The position numbers were made by a program, and so were the translations under genes. The notes under the pieces were generated by a model. It was not told where the DNA came from. It worked only from the letters and a program-made list of their open reading frames with translations, and searched no databases. A DNA stretch of 64,000 bases from an uncultured bacterium (GTDB lineage Bacteria; Fermentibacterota; Fermentibacteria; Fermentibacterales; JCC-6), in assembly GCA_964426545.1 (NCBI GenBank), contig CAYRQP010000007.1, positions 36,534 through 100,533 of the forward strand, written 5' to 3'. Below are positions 13,061-64,000 of the stretch, in pieces (within the stretch, counting starts at the first letter, position 1; the number at the start of each line of letters is the position of its first letter).

Positions 13061-14467
13061 ATGAGTAGCCCGGACAGATTCTACTCAGTTTACAAACATC
13101 TGCCGGTTTTTCTTCAAAATGCGATAGTGAGTATCAAAAGCGGTAGACGCTGGAAGCATGAAAACAGCAGACAGTTTCAATCTATTGTGGAAGAGCTGCT
13201 CAGAATTCAGTATGCATCGAGCGAAGAAATTCTCGAATACAGAAAAAACAAACTGGGTGCAGTTCTTAAAGCTGCGGCAAAAACAGAATATTACAGAAGA
13301 GAACTTCCCGAGGATGAGATAATAGAGAAAGAACCATTTGCTGTATTAGCGGATATTCCTGTGCTGGAACGTGAAGAGGTCAGAAACAACTTCAGAAAGT
13401 TCATCAACCCGCTGTACACAGACAAAATGATGAAACATGGAACAAGCGGGACAACAGGTACTCCTCTGCAGGTTATGTGGACAGAAGAGAGCATGGATAT
13501 GGAAAGAGCACTCATCTGGAGACAGAGAAGAGTCACAGGACTTTCTTTTGGAGAAGCCTGGAGGGGTATGCTCGGCGGTCATAAGATAGTACCGCTTAGT
13601 GTAACCGCTGCTCCTTTCTGGAGAACAAACAGGAAAGCAAAACAGGTATATTTTTCTACATTCCACATAAGCCCGGACGCAGCGGGGGACTACCGCGAAG
13701 GACTCGATAAATATGATATCGAATATCTCGAAGGTTATCCATCTGTTTTATATGCTCTGGCTCTTGCTCTTGATTCCGCAGATATCAGGTATAGACTCAA
13801 GGGAATCTATTATGGAGCCGAACCGCTCAGGGAATTCCAGAGAGAATTAATTGAAAAAGTATTTGAAACCTATGTCTGGGATTATTACGGATTGACTGAA
13901 AGGGTAGCCTCGGCAAGTGAATATGAATGCCGGAACGGACTTCATGAGAACTGGGAAAACTGCTTTCCGGAAGTGGTGGATAAAAAAGGTTGCCTTCTCG
14001 ATGACGGGCAATATGGAGAACTCGCAGGGACTTCTTTTTCAAATTTGGGGTTCCCGCTTCTCAGGTATAGAACAGGGGATATGACGCGGATCATTCCGGG
14101 AAAATGTACATGCCGGCGGGATTCGAGGAGAATAGCACCTATCGATACCAAACGGGAAGACCTTCTTATTATGCCGGACGGAAGTTATCTGTCAGCTTCC
14201 AACATGACCTATCCGTTTAAGGAAGTAGGACATATAAAGTTATCACAGATATATCAGGGACAGAGGAATCTCATAGAAGTCAGGGTCGTACCTGACAGTG
14301 ATTACAGAGAAGAGGATGGAATTGCTCTTGCCGGGAAACTTAAAAAGCTGCTTCCCGCTGAAGTAAGCGTAAAGATAGAACTTGTCGATGATATACCTAA
14401 AACAGCCTCAGGCAAATATGCGTTCTGTATATGCGCGATTAAAGAACTTCCCCCAGAAGAAGATTAG
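13061..14467 (+). CDS. CapK-like adenylate-forming enzyme (phenylacetate-CoA ligase / coenzyme F390 synthetase family)
   Basis: AMP-binding P-loop-like TSGTTGTP and the overall PaaK-like layout. Start chosen at the second ATG, which has a GGGGAG RBS. Confidence 0.6.
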   Translation: MSSPDRFYSVYKHLPVFLQNAIVSIKSGRRWKHENSRQFQSIVEELLRIQYASSEEILEYRKNKLGAVLKAAAKTEYYRRELPEDEIIEKEPFAVLADIPVLEREEVRNNFRKFINPLYTDKMMKHGTSGTTGTPLQVMWTEESMDMERALIWRQRRVTGLSFGEAWRGMLGGHKIVPLSVTAAPFWRTNRKAKQVYFSTFHISPDAAGDYREGLDKYDIEYLEGYPSVLYALALALDSADIRYRLKGIYYGAEPLREFQRELIEKVFETYVWDYYGLTERVASASEYECRNGLHENWENCFPEVVDKKGCLLDDGQYGELAGTSFSNLGFPLLRYRTGDMTRIIPGKCTCRRDSRRIAPIDTKREDLLIMPDGSYLSASNMTYPFKEVGHIKLSQIYQGQRNLIEVRVVPDSDYREEDGIALAGKLKKLLPAEVSVKIELVDDIPKTASGKYAFCICAIKELPPEED

Positions 14468-15464: not shown

Positions 15465-16683
15465 TACCCTTCAAATAAAGACAAAGAGCCCTGAACATCC
15501 ATGCCTGCGACCATCGCATATGAACTACCGGATTCTTGTGCCATCTATGCCTTTGAAAAATAAAGCCACTCTTTACTTCATCCCACAGGAAATCTATACC
15601 CTTATTCAGAATTCTTTTCGCCGTTTCTCTACCATCCGGATAATAGTCTGTGAGTTTCAGAAAGGTGATTGCTCCCTGCGCAAAAGAATGAGGATCCAGG
15701 GGATATTTTCTTGTTGCATAGTACTTTGCCGTTCCGTCAGGTTCGAAGAGAACATCCCGATAATAACTCAAGCCCGATGTAATACAGTCATCCCATTTGG
15801 AAGTGCCAAGGAGCTTTGAAATGTCGGCGAGTGATTCGAGAATAAATCCTGTATGCAGATTATCGATCCATTGCCAGTGTTCGTCTTCGCCGTAAAACCA
15901 GCTTCCGTCATCATTCTGTCTGGCAATGACATACTCTACTGCCTTCTGCGCAAGTGCAGTCCACTCTTTCCTGTTTTCTTCAGAATATTGTGCAGCATTG
16001 GCAAGTATTTTCGCCCCGAAGAGGGAAGCGTTGAAGACCCTTGTTCTGTCATCCGGTGAGTAACTGAAGCAGATTCCGGTATCATCTTCGTAACGTTTTA
16101 AAGAACGGGTAACGAATTGCGCCGAAGCCCCTGCAATAATTGAAACCGCAGGATTGGCTGAGTCTGATAATGAATCAAGAACAAAATTAGTGCAGACAAC
16201 AGTAGGGAACCATGCCGGCTGCAGAAATGCTCTGCTTTGCCAGGGAAAACTATAGCCCCAGCCCAGAGATAGGACACTGATGTTTTCTGCTATTCCTGCT
16301 ACAATACCGCTGATCGGCTTTCTGTTCTTTACAAAGGCGGCAGAACCATCCGTTTTAGAAGCCATCGAGAGAAGAGAATCTCCTAATACTTCTTTCAGTT
16401 CTCCTGACTTGTCTATTTCAGGGAAATCACTGATACCGGAGAGGAAGAGAGCAAGCCCTTTCGGGTTGGTTATGTCCCGTATGCGAAGGAATGGTCTTAA
16501 ATTCAGGGGACATCGTTTAACAAGCTGGATTAAAGCAAGGCGAAATAAGCGAGAGCGTCTTATGAAGGGAGAGAGCAGTTTACTGTTCAAGCCGTCGTAT
16601 GGATCACTTCCACGGAAATTATCGTGAATTGCGCTTTTTAGAATAACCCCGGCTATTGTCCGGAAACGCTTGCTGCTGTTCAC
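15445..16683 (-). CDS. hypothetical protein, possibly an (alpha/alpha)6 toroid-like domain (heparinase II/III- or C5-epimerase-like)
   Basis: QNDDGSWFYGEDEHWQWIDNLHTGFILESL resembles alpha/alpha-toroid carbohydrate-enzyme helices. No firm family assignment. Confidence 0.35.
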   Translation of the reverse strand: MNSSKRFRTIAGVILKSAIHDNFRGSDPYDGLNSKLLSPFIRRSRLFRLALIQLVKRCPLNLRPFLRIRDITNPKGLALFLSGISDFPEIDKSGELKEVLGDSLLSMASKTDGSAAFVKNRKPISGIVAGIAENISVLSLGWGYSFPWQSRAFLQPAWFPTVVCTNFVLDSLSDSANPAVSIIAGASAQFVTRSLKRYEDDTGICFSYSPDDRTRVFNASLFGAKILANAAQYSEENRKEWTALAQKAVEYVIARQNDDGSWFYGEDEHWQWIDNLHTGFILESLADISKLLGTSKWDDCITSGLSYYRDVLFEPDGTAKYYATRKYPLDPHSFAQGAITFLKLTDYYPDGRETAKRILNKGIDFLWDEVKSGFIFQRHRWHKNPVVHMRWSQAWMFRALCLYLKGNDENLV

Positions 16684-16686
16684 AGT

Positions 16687-18870
16687 TTAATCTCCAATGA
16701 ACTCCTTTATATCGATAACTTCAGGATTTCCGGACTCTAAACTTTTCAAGGTTATGAAAGTTGCCAGAGTTGTCGAAATCAGCGACTCCGGTGAAATGGG
16801 ACAATTACCGGAGGAAAGAGCTGAAATGAACGCTGACATTTCTTCCGCATGTCCCTTACCGGAGAACTTGCCTGTCCGTTTACGATTCCCATAGAATTCC
16901 AGACGGTTGAAATTATCGATTACCCCTGAATTACCTGCTCCCAGAACTTCGAAACGTTCTTTCGGCATGCTTTTGGAGCCTTCTGAAAAATAACTGACGG
17001 ATCCGATCGAACCATCGCTGAAACGCAATGTAATGATAACATTGTCCTCGTTCACGAGGGAACTGTCATCTGAAGAAATGCATTTCGCAAAAACCTCGAC
17101 CGGAAGTGCTTCACAGAAAAACTGCATCAGGTCGATGAAATGACAGACTTCACCGATTATCCTGCCGCCGCCTTCTTCAGAGCCCTGTATCCAGTGTTCT
17201 TTAGGTATATGTCCGGCGTTGACGCGGTACATCATACAGAGGGGAGCGGTCTTTACACCCATATATTTTTTTAACTTGACGGCAGCTTTCGAAAATCTTC
17301 GGTTGAAACCAACCTGAAGCAGAGGAGGTTTGTCAGCGGTTTTAAGAATAGAAGCTATCTCAGTCAGCTGTTCTGTCGTAAGACAAAGCGGCTTTTCAAC
17401 AAATACAGCCTTTCCGGCTTTTAAACACTCGATAACTGCCGGTGCATGCATATCATGTCTTGTGGAAACAACTATTGCATCTGTTTCTTTATCCGAAACA
17501 AGTTCGTCCAGTGTGGCAACAGCCCTGCAGGCATCCTGCTTTCTAGCGGTAGCTGCAGCAGTCAACCCGGATTGAGTGCAGATTGCGGAAAAGTAAGTTT
17601 TCTTGTTCTGTTTGAGAGGCGGGATGAGAAATGTCTGTGCGAAAGAACCCGCTCCAAAAAAACCTATTCCAATGCGTTCCTTCTTGATAGGAGACACTGT
17701 TGTTATGTCAACGGTCCGGATTCTCTCTATGGAATTCGGATAGGAAAGCAGCATACCGCAGTAATACTCTGCTCCGTTTCCTATCAATTCATAGAGTTCC
17801 GGAGCTTTATCGAATTCTCTTCTGTGGGTAATGAGTTTTAACGGGTCGACACCGCCTGATGCCATCAGATCGAGGATGGCTTCAAGGTTTCTTCCCTCAG
17901 TCCACCTTACATAAGCAGCCGGATAGTCATATCCGCCTTCCTCATAGAGCGGGTCATACCGGCCCGGACCATATGAGCACGAAACGGTAAAGGATATTTC
18001 CTTTCTGTAATACGGTTCTCTCGGAATATCCATGCCGACAGCACCGACGACAACGACACGTCCTTTCTTCCTGGTAATTCTACCTGCAAGTTCGATTGGC
18101 TGGTTACTTGAAGTTCCCGCACAGACAATAACCAGATCGGCACCCCGTCCTCTTGTAAAATCAGAAACACCGGCTTCAACACTATCACTGTCGGTTACAA
18201 AGGCAATGCCTGCACTTCCTGCCTTTAGAGCCAGGGCAGATGCTTCCCCTGAAATATCCACACCTGCTACTCTGCATCCATTCGACTTCAGTATCTGGCA
18301 GGCAAGTTGTCCAATTATCCCCAGACCTATTACTACAGCAGTTTCTCCTACTGTGGGAGCCGCTATTCTTATTCCCTGAAGTGCTATTGCTCCAAGGGTT
18401 GCAAAGGAAGCCGTATCAGGGCTTACCCCGGATGGAATCTTAACAGTGAGATTTACCGGAATTACTGTCTGGTCCGCATGATTCGCATATCCGCCGCCCG
18501 CACATGCCACTTGATCACCAATTTCAAAACCGGTGACATCATTACCGATCTCTATTATTTCTCCAGCTGTACTGTATCCAAGGGGCTGAGCACCCTCCAG
18601 TTTAGAACGGACTTTTCTTATTGTATTCTGAAGGCCGAGAGATTTTACCATCTGAATAGCCTGCATTGCCTGTTCAGGTTTTGCTTTTGCTTTACCAATC
18701 AGCGATTTTTTGCCCGTTATTATTTTTCCGCCTTCGGTACCGGGGCTAATGGCTGAGTATAAAGTTCTTACCCGAACACATTTAGCAGGGAGGTTTGGGT
18801 CGGGGGCTGTAATTATTTCAACAGAACCGTCACTTAATCTCTGTCCTAATATTTTCACTCGTTTCTCCAT
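16687..18870 (-). CDS. bi-domain oxidoreductase: N-terminal zinc-type alcohol dehydrogenase (MDR) fused to C-terminal Gfo/Idh/MocA NAD(P)-binding oxidoreductase
   Basis: MDR Rossmann GLGIIGQLACQ with Zn-ADH-like GDQVACAGGGYANHA, followed by Gfo/Idh/MocA IGIGFFGAGSFAQ and EKPLCLT. Confidence 0.7.
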   Translation of the reverse strand: MEKRVKILGQRLSDGSVEIITAPDPNLPAKCVRVRTLYSAISPGTEGGKIITGKKSLIGKAKAKPEQAMQAIQMVKSLGLQNTIRKVRSKLEGAQPLGYSTAGEIIEIGNDVTGFEIGDQVACAGGGYANHADQTVIPVNLTVKIPSGVSPDTASFATLGAIALQGIRIAAPTVGETAVVIGLGIIGQLACQILKSNGCRVAGVDISGEASALALKAGSAGIAFVTDSDSVEAGVSDFTRGRGADLVIVCAGTSSNQPIELAGRITRKKGRVVVVGAVGMDIPREPYYRKEISFTVSCSYGPGRYDPLYEEGGYDYPAAYVRWTEGRNLEAILDLMASGGVDPLKLITHRREFDKAPELYELIGNGAEYYCGMLLSYPNSIERIRTVDITTVSPIKKERIGIGFFGAGSFAQTFLIPPLKQNKKTYFSAICTQSGLTAAATARKQDACRAVATLDELVSDKETDAIVVSTRHDMHAPAVIECLKAGKAVFVEKPLCLTTEQLTEIASILKTADKPPLLQVGFNRRFSKAAVKLKKYMGVKTAPLCMMYRVNAGHIPKEHWIQGSEEGGGRIIGEVCHFIDLMQFFCEALPVEVFAKCISSDDSSLVNEDNVIITLRFSDGSIGSVSYFSEGSKSMPKERFEVLGAGNSGVIDNFNRLEFYGNRKRTGKFSGKGHAEEMSAFISALSSGNCPISPESLISTTLATFITLKSLESGNPEVIDIKEFIGD

Positions 18871-56071: not shown

Positions 56072-57589
56072 ATGTATAGAATCATGTTACTTATCATTGC
56101 AGCTTTGACTTTTGCAGGCACAGTTTATGACTACACTCCGGTAACCACCAACACTGACCCTGGTTATGTTCCCAGTACATATCAGGAGTGGCTGGACGGA
56201 CAGCCTGTTCCTGTCCCGCTTGAAGTAACTTCCATAGCGAAGACCGCTACCCGCGGAACTGAGTTCGTGATAGTATGTGAAGTGGGAATAACAGACAGCA
56301 TCGGCACCGAACTGCTGGAGCAGTGGATGGCCGATATTGCGAATCAGGGGCTTTCAGTCGAAGCGGTCGAAGTCACATACAGTACCCATGTCGAGATGAA
56401 AGACTATCTGACAGAATTATGGGAAAACGGGCTTAAAGGTGCGGTTCTTGTAGGAAATCTCCCTGCTGCGTGGGGTGCACTCGGAGATCAGTTCCTCGAT
56501 TCGGACGAGACGTTCCCAAGCGATTATTACTATATGGACCTCGATGGAATCTGGGAGGACAACTGGGTGGGCTATCCTTCTGCCGGAATTCCAGGAACGG
56601 ATGGAATATTCGACACATGGTCGGGAAATCTGGAGCCTGAAATCTATGTCGGAAGAATAAAAGTAGATAACATGACGGCATATTTTCCCGATCCGATGGA
56701 CCTTCTTCGTGATTATCTCGAACGGAATCATCAGTGGCGGGTTGAAGGTGATCCTGAACCCCTGACAGCCCTTTGTTATGTAGACAACGACTGGTCATAC
56801 TGGGGACCCGGGTATCAGGGTGCAATGGAGTACCTTTATCAGAACACAGTTCTTGTGTCACAGGTAGATTCAACCAACGGAACGGATTATCTCGAAAATC
56901 GTCTTCCTGACAATTATGTCTGGATAAGTCCTTTTGTTCATTCCGGCCCCACTGTTCATCAATGGAATCCGGGACCTTATACATACTGGGACGATATTGT
57001 GCCGGCACAGCCGCAGGCGCATTTCTATAATCTCTTTGCCTGTTCCAATTCCCGTTTCACGACCCAGCGGAATATGGGGGCCGTTTATACATTTTGCACA
57101 GATACGGGGCTTGCTTCGATTGGAAGCACAAAGAGCGGTTCGATGCTTCAGTTTACAATGTTCTACCTTCCGCTTGGTATAGGACGCTCTCTTGGTGAGT
57201 CCTATCAGGAATGGTGGGACTACATAGCCATCGATGGTCTTAACTTTGACGAGAAGTCCTGGCACCTTGGAATGGTACTGCTTGGTGATCCGACGCTTAT
57301 ACCGGCTATGCATATGCTTGGAATAGAAGAAGGTGATGTTAGCCCGCACAACCCTGAAATCCTTCTCACAATTGAAGGCAATCCCTGCAGGTCAACGGCT
57401 GTCATCGCTACAAATATTCAATCAGGTACTGTCGAAGTGCATGACACTTCGGGAAGGCTTGTTTACACCGACGAACTCTCAGACGGCAGAGCCACTATTT
57501 ACGCCGAAGATCTGAATACGGGAATGTACTTTGTTCGCGTCGTATCAGGCGTGTCAGAAGCAACAGAATCATTACTTGTCCTGCGGTAG
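56072..57589 (+). CDS. putative clan-CD (gingipain/C25-like) cysteine peptidase with T9SS type-A C-terminal sorting domain
   Basis: Candidate catalytic dyad in FVHSGP...LFACSNS (His then Ala-Cys). C-terminal GRLVYT...GMYFVRVVSG...SLLVLR matches the Por_Secre_tail pattern. The peptidase assignment is tentative. Confidence 0.4.
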   Translation: MYRIMLLIIAALTFAGTVYDYTPVTTNTDPGYVPSTYQEWLDGQPVPVPLEVTSIAKTATRGTEFVIVCEVGITDSIGTELLEQWMADIANQGLSVEAVEVTYSTHVEMKDYLTELWENGLKGAVLVGNLPAAWGALGDQFLDSDETFPSDYYYMDLDGIWEDNWVGYPSAGIPGTDGIFDTWSGNLEPEIYVGRIKVDNMTAYFPDPMDLLRDYLERNHQWRVEGDPEPLTALCYVDNDWSYWGPGYQGAMEYLYQNTVLVSQVDSTNGTDYLENRLPDNYVWISPFVHSGPTVHQWNPGPYTYWDDIVPAQPQAHFYNLFACSNSRFTTQRNMGAVYTFCTDTGLASIGSTKSGSMLQFTMFYLPLGIGRSLGESYQEWWDYIAIDGLNFDEKSWHLGMVLLGDPTLIPAMHMLGIEEGDVSPHNPEILLTIEGNPCRSTAVIATNIQSGTVEVHDTSGRLVYTDELSDGRATIYAEDLNTGMYFVRVVSGVSEATESLLVLR

Positions 57590-57643: not shown

Positions 57644-58309
57644 TTAGAACTCAGATTTAATCTCTCCCCATGTACTTGGTGTAAGCCCGGCATCACCATA
57701 GAGATTGAAAAAACATTCGAAGGCGACTGAATTCCAGGTCGCACCATTGTCATTGCTCCAGCATGAAGCCTCTGCCCATAACTGGTCTGCAACGACCCAA
57801 TTTACATGCTCGGAAGCGGAAACGGCCTGAACACCGAGCCAGAATGTTTCTCCTGCAACAACAGAAAAGCCATCTCCCAGGTCTACTGTAACGGCAAAGA
57901 TGTCATTCCCGGCGAGGTCGTCTCCCGTATCCACCTCGGCAATCTGGGATGAAGGAATTGTTTCATTCCATACAATAGTTCCCGGGCACGGGGTATCCGC
58001 TGTATCATTTGTATAAACAAACAAATTAAGGTCAAGCGGGTGGGTTGTCCCGAAATAAACAAGCCAGAGTTCAAGCTGATTGACGGTACCGCCTGACGAA
58101 AGAACGAAATCATCAGCCCCCAGATAGGTTCCCCCGCTGGCAATTTGAAAAGCATCCTTGGCATTTGCAAAGTCATATGGCTGTGAGTAGAGAGTACCGT
58201 CTGCGAGTGGAGGGGGTGTCACGGGAGATTGCGGTGTAGTATCAATCATAATTGTGGCAAATGCTGCAACGGTAAAGAATATCAGTACAAAAGTTGACCA
58301 GCGTTTCAT
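57644..58309 (-). CDS. small secreted protein, paralog A (unknown function)
   Basis: Signal peptide MKRWSTFVLIFFTVAAFA. About 60% identical by eye to the adjacent paralog. Conserved LYSQPYDF, VDTGDD, GETxWxGVQ, CWSxDNGATW and a C-terminal GLTPSTWGxIKSEF. Confidence 0.45.
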   Translation of the reverse strand: MKRWSTFVLIFFTVAAFATIMIDTTPQSPVTPPPLADGTLYSQPYDFANAKDAFQIASGGTYLGADDFVLSSGGTVNQLELWLVYFGTTHPLDLNLFVYTNDTADTPCPGTIVWNETIPSSQIAEVDTGDDLAGNDIFAVTVDLGDGFSVVAGETFWLGVQAVSASEHVNWVVADQLWAEASCWSNDNGATWNSVAFECFFNLYGDAGLTPSTWGEIKSEF

Positions 58310-58386
58310 AAAGAACCTCCTGTTATAGTTTAAAGTCTATGATACAATTCCGAAATGTCATTGCTATGTCAAGGAAGGTAAGGAAT

Positions 58387-58429
58387 GGGGACGGAGGAGT
58401 GTTTTATACGGCACACTCCTCCGTCCCCA
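58387..58429. repeat. palindromic element GGGGACGGAGGAGTG-N12-CACTCCTCCGTCCCC
   Basis: Second copy of the same 15-bp stem, immediately 3' of paralog B. Confidence 0.8.
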
Positions 58430-58434
58430 ATGAC

Positions 58435-59133
58435 TTAGAACTCAGATTTGATATGTCCCCATGTGCTGGGTGTAAGTCCTGTTTTCTGATTTAGGTTGAA
58501 GAAGCACTCGTAGGTATCAGAGCCAAGCCCATCCCAGGTAGCACCATTATCAGCACTCCAACAGGCATTCATTGCCCAGAGTGGGTCGGCAACGAGCCAA
58601 TATACAGCATCGCTTCCAACTGACTGTACTCCGAACCAGTGAGTTTCACCTGCAGGAATGGCAAAACCGTTGCCGAGATCTACAGTGACATGATAAATGT
58701 CATATCCCCACTGGTCATCACCTGTATCTACATCTGTAATCTGTGCTGCAGGAATTGTAGCACTCCATGCGGTACCTCCGGGACGAGGCCCCGTGTCACT
58801 TTCATCGTTGGTATAGACATACATATTGAGGTCGACAGGGTGTGAAACGGCATAGATTAGCCATAGTTCGACCTGATCTACATGCCCGTCAGAAGTTAGG
58901 GCGAAATCATCTGCGCCGATATACTGATCTCCGCTTGCTACGCTGATACCGTTTACAAGGTTGGAAAAGTCGTAGGGCTGTGAATAGAGTGAACCATCTG
59001 CAGGTGGTGGCGGTTCGCTGCTGTGTGACGGTATTCTTCCGAGTTCGAAGCCGGATGAACGATGAATGCCGACAATCGTGGCAAAAGCCGCGAAAGTAAA
59101 GAAGACGATAACAAAAATGGACCAAAGTTTCAT
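58435..59133 (-). CDS. small secreted protein, paralog B (unknown function)
   Basis: Signal peptide MKLWSIFVIVFFTFAAFA. Tandem paralog of 57644-58309. Confidence 0.45.
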   Translation of the reverse strand: MKLWSIFVIVFFTFAAFATIVGIHRSSGFELGRIPSHSSEPPPPADGSLYSQPYDFSNLVNGISVASGDQYIGADDFALTSDGHVDQVELWLIYAVSHPVDLNMYVYTNDESDTGPRPGGTAWSATIPAAQITDVDTGDDQWGYDIYHVTVDLGNGFAIPAGETHWFGVQSVGSDAVYWLVADPLWAMNACWSADNGATWDGLGSDTYECFFNLNQKTGLTPSTWGHIKSEF

Positions 59134-59322
59134 AAAAACCTCCTAATAAGAAATAAACATAACTCTACATATTAAGCATTATTGTATGATATGTTAAGTG
59201 TGTCAAGTAAGAAGAAAGACGGGATATATTCAATCAGGTATATTGCAGGATGGAATTGATATTCATTAGATTTTAAGTGGTATGAGAAAAAATAACAGCA
59301 TGAAAATTGAAAGCACTGCAAA

Positions 59323-60873
59323 ATGACAAACAATCGCTTCTTCGGCGGACACGGCGGGAAAATTGCGCTGTTTCTCATAACTGTCTATTCCGTTCTTATC
59401 TGCTTCTCAGTTATCATGTCGCAAACTTACATACACGATGACAATATGTATGTAGCTGCAGGTATCCTTCTGGCAGAGAAACAGATCTATTCTGATTTCA
59501 CATATCTTCAGACACCTTATATGCCCTATCTGTACAATCTGGTCTTTAGACTCAATGACTATTCACGGCCCCTTCTTGTAGGGAAACTGTTCAAGTTCTT
59601 TCTGTCGGTAATCGAATTAGCATTGATCTACCTTCTGTTCAGACTTCTTTCGGGAAACAAGTGGCTGAGTGCGTCCTTCCTGCTGATTCTTGTGAACAAC
59701 AGGATATTCCGAAGCATTATACCATACATTCGAAATTACGACCTTGCATTGATATTGGCTCTTGGTGCTTTCCTGTTCTATTTTTACAGGCGGAGGAAGT
59801 CACAGGGCAGACTCTTGGTAACATATTTAATAACGGGGGTGCTCTCAGGAGCAGCCATTGGCGTAAAACTGACTTACGGTCTTATACCGCTCTGCTTTCT
59901 TATACCGCTGTTTATCGAATACCGGTTTTCTTCGAAGAGTTGGCGGCTTTTTGCATCATTCATTTCAGGCATGATCATGACTCTTATTCCTGCTATTGTT
60001 CTGACTCTCAGACCCGGGCCGGATGTAGGTTATTTTAATAACATCGGATACCATTCCCTAAATGTATCCTGGGTGATGACTGAAGTTACTGAATCGAGCG
60101 TGTATTTCCACGAAAAACTGCTTTACTTCCTTAACATATTCACCTGTGTCCAGTCTAATATTTTTGTTCTTTTGATTTTCATTTATGCGATATTCGTATC
60201 AGTCAAAGAGAAAATCTCCGTGAGATACAGCAATTCACCATATCCGGTCATACTCCTGTTTCTGTTTGCCGGTCTGTTGATGTTCTTCCTGCCGACTCCC
60301 TCGGGAGACGGGTATCTATATGCAGCCATACCTGCAACTCTCATGTTCATCTGTGTTCTTCATGGAAAATTTAGCGAAACAGGGAAGAAGAGGGTGTTGA
60401 TGTTATCCTGGACAGTTGCCGCTGTTCTTGTGCTTGGCAATGGAGCCCTCGACCATAAAATGATGAACACAGCTTTTATTCCTTCTGCATGGGGGCCGAA
60501 CAAGATGCATGAGTCGATACAGACTCTTGCTGATTATATTCCCGAAGAGCAGAGAGAGCAGCCCGTGGCAACGCTGCATTCCGCAGTTCCCCTCGAAATA
60601 GGAATGAACATATACACGGAATTTTCAAGCGGTGAATTCACCTGCAGGATTGCACACATTCTGTCGAAAACTGAACTCGACAGATATGGAATAACCGCTC
60701 CACGCTACATCTTATCTCTGCTCGGAGCAGATCCCCCATCCGCCATTATTGTCAATGCTGATATATCCAGATGGGAAGAGACTTTCATGGAGTATGCAGA
60801 AACGCATGGTTATGATGACTTCTACACACTCGACGGATATATATTCTACATAAGGACAGGGGAGCAGGAATGA
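59323..60873 (+). CDS. GT-C fold membrane glycosyltransferase-like protein (ArnT/PMT-like), paralog 1
   Basis: Polytopic, with a DD motif (IHDDNMY) in the first extracytoplasmic loop directly after TM1. C-terminal soluble domain of ~150 aa. Paralogous to the downstream gene. Confidence 0.45.
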   Translation: MTNNRFFGGHGGKIALFLITVYSVLICFSVIMSQTYIHDDNMYVAAGILLAEKQIYSDFTYLQTPYMPYLYNLVFRLNDYSRPLLVGKLFKFFLSVIELALIYLLFRLLSGNKWLSASFLLILVNNRIFRSIIPYIRNYDLALILALGAFLFYFYRRRKSQGRLLVTYLITGVLSGAAIGVKLTYGLIPLCFLIPLFIEYRFSSKSWRLFASFISGMIMTLIPAIVLTLRPGPDVGYFNNIGYHSLNVSWVMTEVTESSVYFHEKLLYFLNIFTCVQSNIFVLLIFIYAIFVSVKEKISVRYSNSPYPVILLFLFAGLLMFFLPTPSGDGYLYAAIPATLMFICVLHGKFSETGKKRVLMLSWTVAAVLVLGNGALDHKMMNTAFIPSAWGPNKMHESIQTLADYIPEEQREQPVATLHSAVPLEIGMNIYTEFSSGEFTCRIAHILSKTELDRYGITAPRYILSLLGADPPSAIIVNADISRWEETFMEYAETHGYDDFYTLDGYIFYIRTGEQE

Positions 60874-60898
60874 ACCAGCATTACTGCCGGAGGGGAAG

Positions 60899-62467
60899 AT
60901 GAAAATGACCGGCTTTGTAGAGACCTTCAGGGGAAATAGACTCCGCAGATTCGGAGTAACCCTTGCTGTTGTCTACTGTGTACTGATGTGCTTCACTACA
61001 GTAAGCAAAGTCATTCCTGTCCGCGATGACAATATGTACATTTCGTCGGCAGTTCTTCTCGAAGAGTACACCCTCTATGATGAATTTGCATATCTGCAAA
61101 CACCTTACATGCCGTATATCTACAATGCCATGTTCAAACCGTTCGGTTATGGCAGACCGCTTCTCATCGGGAAGATATTCAAGTTTCTGCTTGCAATGGG
61201 TATTCTCGGACTAACCTATGTCCTGATAAAGAAACTGTCAGGAAGCAGGGGTATTTCACTGGCGTTCATACTTATTATGGTTAACAACCAGATATTCCAG
61301 TTCAACATACTCTTTGTGCGGAATTATGATCTTCCGCTGCTGCTTACACTTGGTGCGTTCGTTTACCTTCTCTCGGGTCGTGCTTCACCTGTGTGGAGTA
61401 TAAGGAAGGCAATCGTCACGGGTGTTCTGTGCGGATTTTGCATTGGGATAAAACTCACATATGCACCGCTTCCCCTGGTTCTTCTCGTATCGATGGTACA
61501 CGAAAACGGAATATCGAAAGCACTTCTGCGGTATTTTGTCGCCTTCAGTATCAGCATGATCGTTGTTCTCATTCCTGCAATAGTAATTCTCATCCGGGTA
61601 GGATGGGACATTACATACTACAACAACCTGGGCTTCCACCTGCTGAACGCCGAGTGGTTCCGCGAACTTGCAGGAGACGAAGTAATAGCAACGAATGCTG
61701 CAATTACAGTATGGGAGAAAATAGAGTATTTCATATTTGTGCTGTTTCGAGAGTTTTCGAATGCGCTGCTAATGTTCCCGCTTCTTTTTGGAGCAGTGCT
61801 TCACAGGAAGCGATTAGGCGTGCTTCTACATAGCAGAGGAACTCACTTCTCGATGTTCCTGATGTTGTTCTTCATAGGGTTGCTGATGTTTTTTGCGGCT
61901 ACACCGTCCTGGCACTGGTATCTCTATCTGGTTACATTTTCTGCTGTCATCCTCGCATCTGTCATTTGCGGTGATATGTCCATTGAATTGAAACGGGTCA
62001 TGAAAGTAATAATCTGGTCTATTGCCATCATTCTGATATGCTCACACATAGAAGCAGATATCAAAATTCTTGGGAATGCATTCAAACCTTCCAAATGGGC
62101 GACAACTCAGGTTTATGATGACATGACAGCACTGAAGGAATTAGTACCGGATTCCGTCAGCATGCTTCCTATGGCAACTGTTCATACAGCCCTGGCACTC
62201 GAAGTCGGAATGGACATCTATCCTGAACTTGCCTGCGGTGACTTTACCTGCAGGACATCAGGTATGCTTACAGCGGAACAAAGGAGGAAATACAGTATTA
62301 TCGACCCGACCGAATTCGATTCCCTGTTCGCAAAAAGACCGCCGTGTGCTATCCTTATCAACGAGCAACCCTGCGGGTGGGAGGTTCCATTGGAACGCTA
62401 TGCAATCGAAAACGGATTCGAGAAGTACAGGTGGATGGATGGGTATAAGTTCTACGTAGCGAATTAA
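60899..62467 (+). CDS. GT-C fold membrane glycosyltransferase-like protein (ArnT/PMT-like), paralog 2
   Basis: Same architecture; VRDDNMY after TM1. Shares YLQTPYMPY, NYDL and a C-terminal FTCR..G...DGYxFY block with paralog 1. Confidence 0.45.
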   Translation: MKMTGFVETFRGNRLRRFGVTLAVVYCVLMCFTTVSKVIPVRDDNMYISSAVLLEEYTLYDEFAYLQTPYMPYIYNAMFKPFGYGRPLLIGKIFKFLLAMGILGLTYVLIKKLSGSRGISLAFILIMVNNQIFQFNILFVRNYDLPLLLTLGAFVYLLSGRASPVWSIRKAIVTGVLCGFCIGIKLTYAPLPLVLLVSMVHENGISKALLRYFVAFSISMIVVLIPAIVILIRVGWDITYYNNLGFHLLNAEWFRELAGDEVIATNAAITVWEKIEYFIFVLFREFSNALLMFPLLFGAVLHRKRLGVLLHSRGTHFSMFLMLFFIGLLMFFAATPSWHWYLYLVTFSAVILASVICGDMSIELKRVMKVIIWSIAIILICSHIEADIKILGNAFKPSKWATTQVYDDMTALKELVPDSVSMLPMATVHTALALEVGMDIYPELACGDFTCRTSGMLTAEQRRKYSIIDPTEFDSLFAKRPPCAILINEQPCGWEVPLERYAIENGFEKYRWMDGYKFYVAN

Positions 62468-62677: not shown

Positions 62678-64000
62678 TTACCAGAGCGCAGGATCACCCG
62701 GCAAATCCGTAAGAGCCTCTTCGTTGATTTGCAGGTGATACTTCAATTCAAGTTCCTGCAGCCATTCCATCAAAGCAAGTTCTTCAAGGCGGACTCTTGC
62801 ATTCTGTTCAAGAATCGGATAGCATTCTTCGAAAGAGGAAACTCTTTCAGGGATGACTTCCACCAACCTGAAAAGAGCACTTCCCTGAGATTCAGACAAT
62901 GGGAAGGGGCCTATCCATTTGGATGTGTTGTCCGGATCAATATCGAATACATGTTCACCATATCCGCCCGGTACTTCTGCAATTCCGACAGGGCGTGTAA
63001 TACGGCTTCCGGATTCATCCGCAAGCAGATAATCATATCCCGGAAGGTCAGCAATAATATCAGTGTGGTCTCCAGCGGAAACGGCTTCGTTGTATTCATC
63101 CTCACGCTCAAAAGGGAGCAGTGCTATTTCAATAATACGCCTTTCTTCGATTAGAGTGGGTGCGGTCATGTTCTCATATTCATATTCTATATCCGCATCG
63201 GTTATTTCAACTCGTTCGTCCAGTATCTGTCCAACCAATTCTTCAGCGACCATCTCGAGTATCCATGATTCCGATTCCACATAAAGTGAATCGACGATTT
63301 CAGGAGCTTCTTCTGTAAGCACATCATTGAGAATCTGATGGAGGAGCATATTGTCTATAAGAAAGTAAAGCCATTGCGGGGTTGACGGCTGAGTAGGCAT
63401 TCGTGTTTCTGCAAACTCGATTTCGTACCTGAAGTTGCCGGCGGTCCAGTTCTGGAAATCCGACTCTATGATTACGGTATTGTCATCGATATCACAGTTG
63501 CCCGCATAGTATTCAGCCAGAGTAAGAACAGCTGCAGAGTCAATTACAATGCTGTAATCAGCGAACATCGATTCCTGCCAGTCGATATATTGCCGTCTCA
63601 CACGTCCCTGTGAGATTTTAGAGACAGCCATGTTCTCGAAAGATATGGTATCGGCAATTGCTTCCGCTACCAGAGCAGGAGAGGTAACCACGATTGAGTC
63701 AAGCCTGACTGTTATACCGTCTGTAGTTTCTCCGGTGTCTCCAACCGCAAGTGAGTCAAGACAGAATGCGAGTTCGAAGGGCAGTTCTGCAAGATGGTCC
63801 GGTCCTTCTTCAATAGCAATTTGTCCATTTGGATTTAAGGTATACCAGACAGATGTCCCCACGAGCATCCGGTAGTTGTCGAGGTCTTCATCTGTCACAT
63901 TTTCAACTGCAATCGATGAGAGAACTTCCCTGCAGGCTATAGCACCTTCAATTCGTCGCCAGAGATTTCCGAATGCTATTATGCGTTCATCATCGAAATT
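62678..64000 (-). CDS. periplasmic SurA/PpiD-like chaperone-like protein; partial, N-terminus beyond window end
   Basis: Minus-strand frame stays open past the track start (GTG at 63898) to the window edge, by hand translation. C-terminal LALMEWLQELELKYHLQIN resembles SurA-family C-termini. Weak call. Confidence 0.3.
   Translation of the reverse strand, partial: NFDDERIIAFGNLWRRIEGAIACREVLSSIAVENVTDEDLDNYRMLVGTSVWYTLNPNGQIAIEEGPDHLAELPFELAFCLDSLAVGDTGETTDGITVRLDSIVVTSPALVAEAIADTISFENMAVSKISQGRVRRQYIDWQESMFADYSIVIDSAAVLTLAEYYAGNCDIDDNTVIIESDFQNWTAGNFRYEIEFAETRMPTQPSTPQWLYFLIDNMLLHQILNDVLTEEAPEIVDSLYVESESWILEMVAEELVGQILDERVEITDADIEYEYENMTAPTLIEERRIIEIALLPFEREDEYNEAVSAGDHTDIIADLPGYDYLLADESGSRITRPVGIAEVPGGYGEHVFDIDPDNTSKWIGPFPLSESQGSALFRLVEVIPERVSSFEECYPILEQNARVRLEELALMEWLQELELKYHLQINEEALTDLPGDPALW

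Follow-up and report, generated by a model that had tools for sequence, protein, structure and literature searches.

GT-C glycosyltransferase paralogs and a widespread C-terminal peptide tag in a gene island of an uncultured Fermentibacterota bacterium

Introduction

Membrane glycosyltransferases of the GT-C superfamily are polytopic proteins (8–13 transmembrane (TM) helices) with the GT-C fold and one or more acidic residues in the first extracytoplasmic loop after TM1. They include the protein O-mannosyltransferase (PMT, GT39), PMT_2 and ArnT-like (GT83) branch, as well as ALG3/ALG9/ALG12, PIG-M and PimE (GT58/GT22/GT50/GT87). Known bacterial C-terminal sorting signals, such as the C-terminal domain (CTD) of the type IX secretion system (T9SS), PEP-CTERM, LPXTG and GlyGly-CTERM, are modular and sit behind a flexible linker on unrelated Sec-exported families. 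Here, we describe a locus that combines a GT-C pair with a tag of comparable modularity. It lies in a 64,000-nucleotide stretch of contig CAYRQP010000007.1 from an uncultured bacterium (the window), in which two secreted paralogs, S1 and S2, are encoded divergently from two membrane paralogs, M1 and M2, whose relatives we call the M family. An earlier note on this DNA had proposed the two pairs as a co-evolving enzyme and substrate.

M1 and M2 are, with near certainty, genuine GT-C enzymes, and there is very little doubt that the C-terminal tag carried by S1 and S2 is modular and widespread. The first result adds new members to a known superfamily; the tag is the more interesting outcome. For the locus as a whole we favour, at about an even chance, a composite explanation in which an active GT-C pair and tag-bearing surface binding modules share a variable envelope island and do not form a dedicated pair.

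GT-C identity of M1 and M2

The four open reading frames (ORFs) lie where the earlier note had placed them. M1 (516 aa; 59323–60873, plus strand; ~11 TM helices) and its ancient paralog M2 (522 aa; 60899–62467, plus strand) stand in tandem and share 37% identity from end to end (E 6e-114). Both show ~9–11 hydrophobic segments and then a soluble tail of ~130 aa, which in M1 forms an alpha/beta domain at residues ~391–511. The first loop carries the motif H38-D39-D40-N-M-Y43 in M1 (59434–59451, plus strand), containing the putative catalytic acidic pair, and R42-D43-D44-N-M-Y47 in M2 (61022–61039, plus strand). These HDDNMY/RDDNMY motifs had been read as a GT-C hallmark, an assignment that is strongly supported by the fold, the loop motif and transitive Pfam matches.

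A word-index homology search returned only 5 clusters of M relatives. When HMMER was run exhaustively with a profile built from six sequences, the yield was 4,521 cluster representatives at E<=1e-3, of which 911 reach E<=1e-30, nearly all matching over the full length of ~510 aa. The apparent rarity of the family is a sensitivity artefact of the word-index search. More generally, orphan status drawn from such a search is not to be trusted for divergent membrane proteins (5 relatives against more than 4,500 with HMMER).

Among 44 aligned members, 13 match PMT_2 (best 2.5e-9) and 8 match PMT at E<=0.01, while 6 match GT87 and 1 matches GtrII; the family profile recovers GPI mannosyltransferase 1 from the PDB at E 7e-4. 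The family consensus after TM1 is H-D-E-H-M-Y, also given as the motif H-D-E-x-M-Y. Of the 44 members, 35 have D and 8 have N at position 39, and 43 have E or D at position 40; the acidic pair directly after TM1 is thus a family-wide feature and not a coincidence of the two paralogs. The "DE" motif of the PMTs has the same position and chemistry. Since M1 and M2 both retain the loop motif and all near-invariant family residues, including a cluster in the C-terminal domain (T417, E425, G427, Y431, G437, F439, R442 and P472), neither looks like a pseudo-enzyme, and both are apparently catalytically intact.

The pair differs from the described branches in several respects. In contrast to the PMT/PMT_2/ArnT-like branch, M1 and M2 fall below all thresholds, with no match to PMT (PF02366) or PMT_2 (PF13231) even at E<=1. 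MIR domains gave no match in either protein, the soluble domain being C-terminal and alpha/beta instead, and the family has its own C-terminal alpha/beta domain of ~120 aa with invariant residues. The ALG3/ALG9/ALG12, PIG-M and PimE group lacks this large soluble domain and shows 10–15% identity. The M family is a large, unnamed, PMT/ArnT-like family without a dedicated model. This GT-C family of several thousand proteins can now be recognised by its confident fold, its motif and its conserved C-terminal domain, which is predicted to be periplasmic, and it offers a ready target for annotation and envelope-glycan biochemistry.

The family is spread over Planctomycetota, Chloroflexota, Acidobacteriota, lineages of the Fibrobacteres–Chlorobi–Bacteroidetes (FCB) type and others. 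Its common neighbours outside the lineage of the window are CNNM/CBS transporters (30 loci), S13 carboxypeptidases (22) and GT2s (6). In the Planctomycetota loci (L044–L089, as numbered among the loci compared), a CNNM/CBS transporter, an M-family GT-C and an S13 D-Ala-D-Ala carboxypeptidase form a strongly conserved trio, which hints at an ancestral role of the family in cell-wall or envelope maintenance. Paired GT-C genes, either two M copies or one M and one PMT_2 protein, recur independently in other phyla (L020, L044, L045, L047, L052 and L210) and suggest a hetero-oligomeric function.

The C-terminal tag and its carriers

S1 (221 aa; 57644–58309, minus strand) and S2 (232 aa; 58435–59133, minus strand) are 57% identical in pairwise alignment (E 1e-87) and 62% in the multiple alignment, close to the ~60% estimated by eye. 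Each has one N-terminal hydrophobic Sec-type segment with an A-x-A-type end, in line with the signal peptides proposed for them. The stretches LYSQPYDF, VDTGDD, CWSxDNGATW and GLTPSTWGxIKSEF are present in the pair as described, but the last of these, noted as a shared C-terminal motif, is a modular tag that is not specific to the family and recurs on three more genes beyond the window. The tag reads GLTPSTWGEIKSEF plus stop in S1 (57644–57688, minus strand) and GLTPSTWGHIKSEF plus stop in S2 (58435–58479, minus strand). Its 14-residue consensus is A-L-E-x-[ST]-T-W-G-x-I-K-[AST]-x-F-COOH. In the 64-kb window, this ending is found only on S1 and S2, and the motif is never internal in a real gene.

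Scanning metagenome contigs for the pattern ACN TGG GGN NNN ATH AAR NNN NNN TTY TRR yielded at least 120 loci. Among the matches listed, to which the counts in this paragraph refer, 83 ORFs end in TWGxIKxxF-stop, 73 of them being >=130 aa, on contigs of 27–70% GC, and Sec-type N-termini are present on 56 of the 59 complete ORFs. Residue bias extends beyond the scanned pattern (n=73): A at position -14 (33/73, P 1e-17), L or V at -13 (53/73, 5e-29), E or D at -12 (2e-17), S or T at -10 (2e-23), and A, S or T at -3 (1e-27). Once their tails are cut off, BLAST sorts the 73 proteins into at least 28 unrelated families. A linker rich in G, S, T and P lies upstream of the tag, and the domains recognised in tagged proteins (Big_5, Laminin_G_3, CBM9, CBM96, F5/8-type C, SusE and DUF7901) are all binding-type beta-sandwiches. 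The choice among synonymous codons is free and each of the three stop codons occurs, which places the constraint on the peptide. For this reason a nucleotide-level element, for example a terminator, and stop-codon read-through into a hidden CTD were both considered and rejected.

Variants of the tag include SWGxIKxxF, TWAxIKxxF and ...SWGAIKSMYR-stop. One or a few extra residues follow the aromatic position in L121 (3988–4566, ...SWGAIKSMYR-stop), L090 (1621–2379, ...SWGLIKAQFE-stop) and L171 (1161–1742, ...TWGAIKALYWGGGDG-stop); because of these variants, a free terminal Phe may not be strictly required. Tandem arrays of 2–3 tagged paralogs are frequent (L125, L134, L191, L200 and L090), as in the window, and rapid local duplication seems typical of tagged cargo.

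Pfam and NCBIfam contain no model that matches the tails, and literature text searches for the motif string, DUF7901 and candidate-phylum sorting signals returned nothing relevant; the tag is apparently undescribed. What recurs beside tagged genes is T9SS cargo (FG-GAP with Por_Secre_tail, CHU_C and FlgD_ig). No recurrent processing or sorting enzyme was found in the sampled flanks, where the search turned up only T9SS cargo and binding proteins. The tag is used alongside the classical T9SS CTDs and yet is distinct from them: it occurs in lineages using CTD types A and B but comprises 14 residues only, with no Ig-like CTD fold, and S1 and S2 have no Por_Secre_tail or CHU_C domain of 70–100 aa and end 6 residues after the W-G. 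The PEP-CTERM/exosortase, LPXTG/sortase and GlyGly-CTERM/rhombosortase systems depend on a signature motif with a TM helix and basic residues behind it, and the tag has neither helix nor basic cluster. The beta-signal of outer-membrane proteins combines a C-terminal aromatic residue with alternating hydrophobic residues on a beta-barrel protein. The tag likewise ends in Phe, and this F is invariant, I stands at -5 and position -3 is small, but the cargo consists of soluble beta-sandwiches, including jelly-rolls, rather than barrels.

The AlphaFold2 model of S2 predicts a beta-jelly-roll core, with an unstructured P/S-rich linker (21–58) and tail (218–232). Fold searches match this core to CBM35/6/32, the Cwp84 lectin-like domain and phage receptor-binding domains; on the modelled fold, S1 and S2 are Sec-exported binding modules resembling carbohydrate-binding modules (CBMs), lectins or phage receptor-binding proteins. 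Regarding family membership, S1 scores 24.1 against the DUF7901 (PF25470) Pfam cut-off of 24, while S2 (20.3) and paralogs of the type of the 226-aa tagged protein (T226) fall below. S1 and the 225-aa tagged protein (T225) are also weak matches to choice-of-anchor R (NF041539; NCBIfam score 20.8 vs 30). Given these matches of S1, the earlier view that neither family is recognisable is only partly right. DUF7901 and choice-of-anchor R domains typically precede alternative C-terminal sorting signals; the ending of the S proteins matches none of the known signals. A word-index search found 3–6 relatives of the S proteins.

The stretch CWSxDNGATW is a weak match to an Asp-box. The form SxDxGxTW is conserved in all S and tagged paralogs (residues 185–192 of S1, window positions 57734–57757, with the equivalent site in S2), and fits the Asp-box (BNR) beta-hairpin motif, placed here in a jelly-roll and not in a propeller.

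Co-occurrence of the M family and tagged genes

The module of S1, S2, M1 and M2 is just half of a larger island. Upstream lies a gene for a C25-like (clan CD) peptidase of 505 aa with a T9SS type-A CTD (56072–57589, plus strand). Downstream lies a lipoprotein gene (526 aa in full), of which the window holds the 3' part (62678–64000, minus strand) and which runs beyond the window end to position 13360 of L007, a longer stretch of the same contig. Past the lipoprotein, positions 13475–17884 of L007 encode three further tagged secreted proteins (225, 226 and 282 aa) ending in ...ALDSETWGTIKAIF, ...ALDSETWGAIKAIF and ...ALYSETWGTIKTLF, the last with an unrelated repeat-rich N-terminal domain, and then a Wzy_C-family membrane protein (601 aa; 16079–17884) with a long soluble C-terminal region (Pfam Wzy_C, 34.2 bits vs gathering 31.7). 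The related genome L003 holds the same five tagged genes.

The M family was compared at 79 loci from species-representative genomes, spanning Planctomycetota, Chloroflexota, Acidobacteriota, Desulfobacterota, Latescibacterota, Ignavibacteriales and a Mycolicibacterium. At 78 of the 79, no S or tagged gene is found among the neighbours; the exception is the closest relative, L011 (M 37% identical). The next-closest loci (L210, L212 and L213) and the distant L001 and L002 have no tagged or S-like neighbours. L210, where a small divergent gene accompanies an M gene and a PMT_2 gene, was considered as a second module and rejected, the small protein being neither tagged nor S-like. From the other side, the 684 kb around the 120 tag loci listed contain no M-family gene.

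Co-location of M with S or tagged genes is confined to the window, L003 and L011, three related genomes, and involves local rearrangement. The order in L011 is C25/T9SS peptidase, M1, M2, two tagged jelly-roll genes, lipoprotein, tagged repeat protein and Wzy_C, so that the S-type genes lie downstream of M2 there and upstream of M1 in the window. In L143, a fourth relative, the equivalent slot is occupied by a single tagged gene together with those for the lipoprotein and the C25 peptidase, while M, S and Wzy_C genes are missing from it. M1/M2, Wzy_C and the S subfamily thus co-vary, though only among four related contigs whose housekeeping flanks are syntenic anyway.

The two duplications also differ in age. 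As L011 has both copy types in the same order (an IHDD-type followed by a PVRDD-type, as M1 and M2), the GT-C duplication is older than the split between the window and L011; the copies are ~36% identical. L011 has a single S1/S2-type gene, 52–58% identical to both, so the S1/S2 duplication is younger. Tandem duplication on both sides had been taken as a sign of co-evolution, which does not fit an M duplication much older than that of S. The earlier note had itself named failure of the two families to co-occur in other genomes as the outcome that would count against its proposal, and this is for the most part what was found: a co-evolving enzyme-substrate pair is weakly supported, and that specific account is downgraded. 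A lineage-specific functional link is possible.

Interpretation

The composite explanation places GT4, the C25/T9SS peptidase, S1, S2, M1, M2, the lipoprotein, the three tagged proteins and Wzy_C in one variable, lineage-specific island. The donor type, the topology, the hetero-pairing and the acceptor, like the function of the tag, are parts of it that we infer. By analogy with solved GT-C enzymes, M1 and M2 would work on the periplasmic face, where the acidic pair of the first external loop (D39-D40 in M1, D43-D44 in M2) would serve to transfer a sugar from a donor linked to polyprenyl phosphate. The predicted topology has the N-terminus inside and loop 1 and the C-terminal domain outside, where the conserved periplasmic domain probably aids acceptor binding. 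Given that such pairs are also seen in L020, L044/45/47/52 and L210, M1 and M2 may form a hetero-complex like Pmt1–Pmt2. The likelier task of the GT-Cs, together with Wzy_C and GT4, would be to make or modify a glycan of the envelope rather than to glycosylate S1 and S2 specifically, and the tag of S1 and S2 would most likely serve envelope sorting or anchoring.

For the tag, our tentative proposal, to which we give a little less than an even chance, is an undescribed C-terminal sorting or anchoring signal that takes small Sec-exported binding modules to the envelope of T9SS-bearing uncultured bacteria of FCB-type lineages, through a recognition partner not encoded nearby. This partner could be, for example, an outer-membrane barrel or BAM-like (beta-barrel assembly machinery) docking site acting by beta-augmentation, or a PDZ/TPR-type receptor for the free C-terminal Phe. 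The tag sets apart a class of small binding proteins of surface type in uncultured bacteria. Should it sort or anchor them, the few C-terminal sorting systems of bacteria would be joined by a new one, and a simple sequence rule would be at hand to predict surface proteomes in candidate phyla.

Several points weigh against the composite explanation. Pfam, NCBIfam and PDB sequence searches with M1 and M2 themselves returned nothing above threshold, and the S2 model is of moderate confidence (predicted local distance difference test score 67). Most tag loci are short, so that the absence of M genes from them says little about genome-wide co-occurrence. The L143 contig spans 4.4 kb only, and M, S and Wzy_C may sit elsewhere in that genome. 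Finally, in the three genomes that have both, the M genes are always inside or beside the tagged cluster, which a dedicated enzyme-substrate relation predicts equally.

Such a relation is the first alternative to consider. M1 and M2 would act as bacterial PMTs on the tagged proteins, with acceptor sites at Ser/Thr of the P/S/T-rich linker after the signal peptide or at the [ST]-T of the tag before W-G. The adjacency in the three genomes suits this alternative, and the failure of general co-occurrence does not; M and the tagged proteins are probably not a dedicated pair, and we consider dedicated O-glycosylation unlikely.

We regard as equally unlikely the opposite case, in which a housekeeping envelope GT-C pair merely lies beside a fast-evolving surface-gene array in a syntenic region. 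L003 and L011 share synteny over the whole flank (PSP1, MetRS, GT4 and M50), and the conserved adjacency is for that reason partly a matter of relatedness; the neighbours of M genes in other phyla are the CNNM/CBS transporters and S13 carboxypeptidases, and reciprocal co-occurrence was not found at the loci compared. Against this, the S genes switched sides of M1-M2 between the window and L011 while adjacency was kept, and L143 is without M, S and Wzy_C together.

A more doubtful alternative, in part already raised by the earlier note, is that S1, S2 and the other tagged jelly-rolls act as lectins for the glycan made by M1/M2, Wzy_C and GT4, for example to organise this glycan or to keep themselves at the cell surface. 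The matches of the S2 fold to CBM35/6/32, the Cwp84 lectin-like domain and phage receptor-binding domains agree with a lectin-like protein, as do the CBM-, lectin- and Ig-type modules carried as tagged cargo elsewhere and the co-variation of S, M and Wzy_C among the four related contigs. However, the model is of moderate confidence, jelly-roll folds are generic, and the failure of general co-occurrence applies here as well.

A transamidase-like route modelled on PIG-K plus PIG-U (the glycosylphosphatidylinositol transamidase) or on PorU (T9SS), in which the C25-like clan-CD peptidase would cut off the tag and transfer the protein onto a glycolipid that the GT-C-fold proteins present, is highly improbable, as M1 and M2 retain the catalytic acidic motif of active transferases, the T9SS CTD should place the peptidase on the cell surface and not at the inner membrane, and other tagged loci lack a nearby C25-like or M gene.

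Other features of the locus

The divergent intergenic region between S2 and M1 (59134–59322, unstranded) is AT-rich, as reported earlier, and measures 189 nt. It contains a single 11/12 sigma70-like match, pointing at S2, while promoter-like sites in the region are not above shuffles. M1 and M2 are separated by a gap of 25 nt, and M2 is probably co-transcribed with M1. Rfam returned nothing in the window.

PDB sequence searches with the C25-like protein, the lipoprotein and the Wzy_C protein gave no match, and the lipoprotein has no family match. The product of 56072–57589 matches Peptidase_C25 and the T9SS Por_Secre_tail domain (Pfam/NCBIfam); the earlier note had listed it as a T9SS-CTD peptidase. 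Its gene is syntenic in L003, L011 and L143, every time beside the tagged-gene/lipoprotein cluster, and homologs of the lipoprotein adjoin tagged genes in L003, L011, L143 and L096. By eye, the C25-like protein keeps a clan-CD-like His...Cys pair ("FVHSGP", "LFACSN") and is far shorter than PorU, and the C-terminal ~100 residues of the lipoprotein look parvulin/SurA-like.

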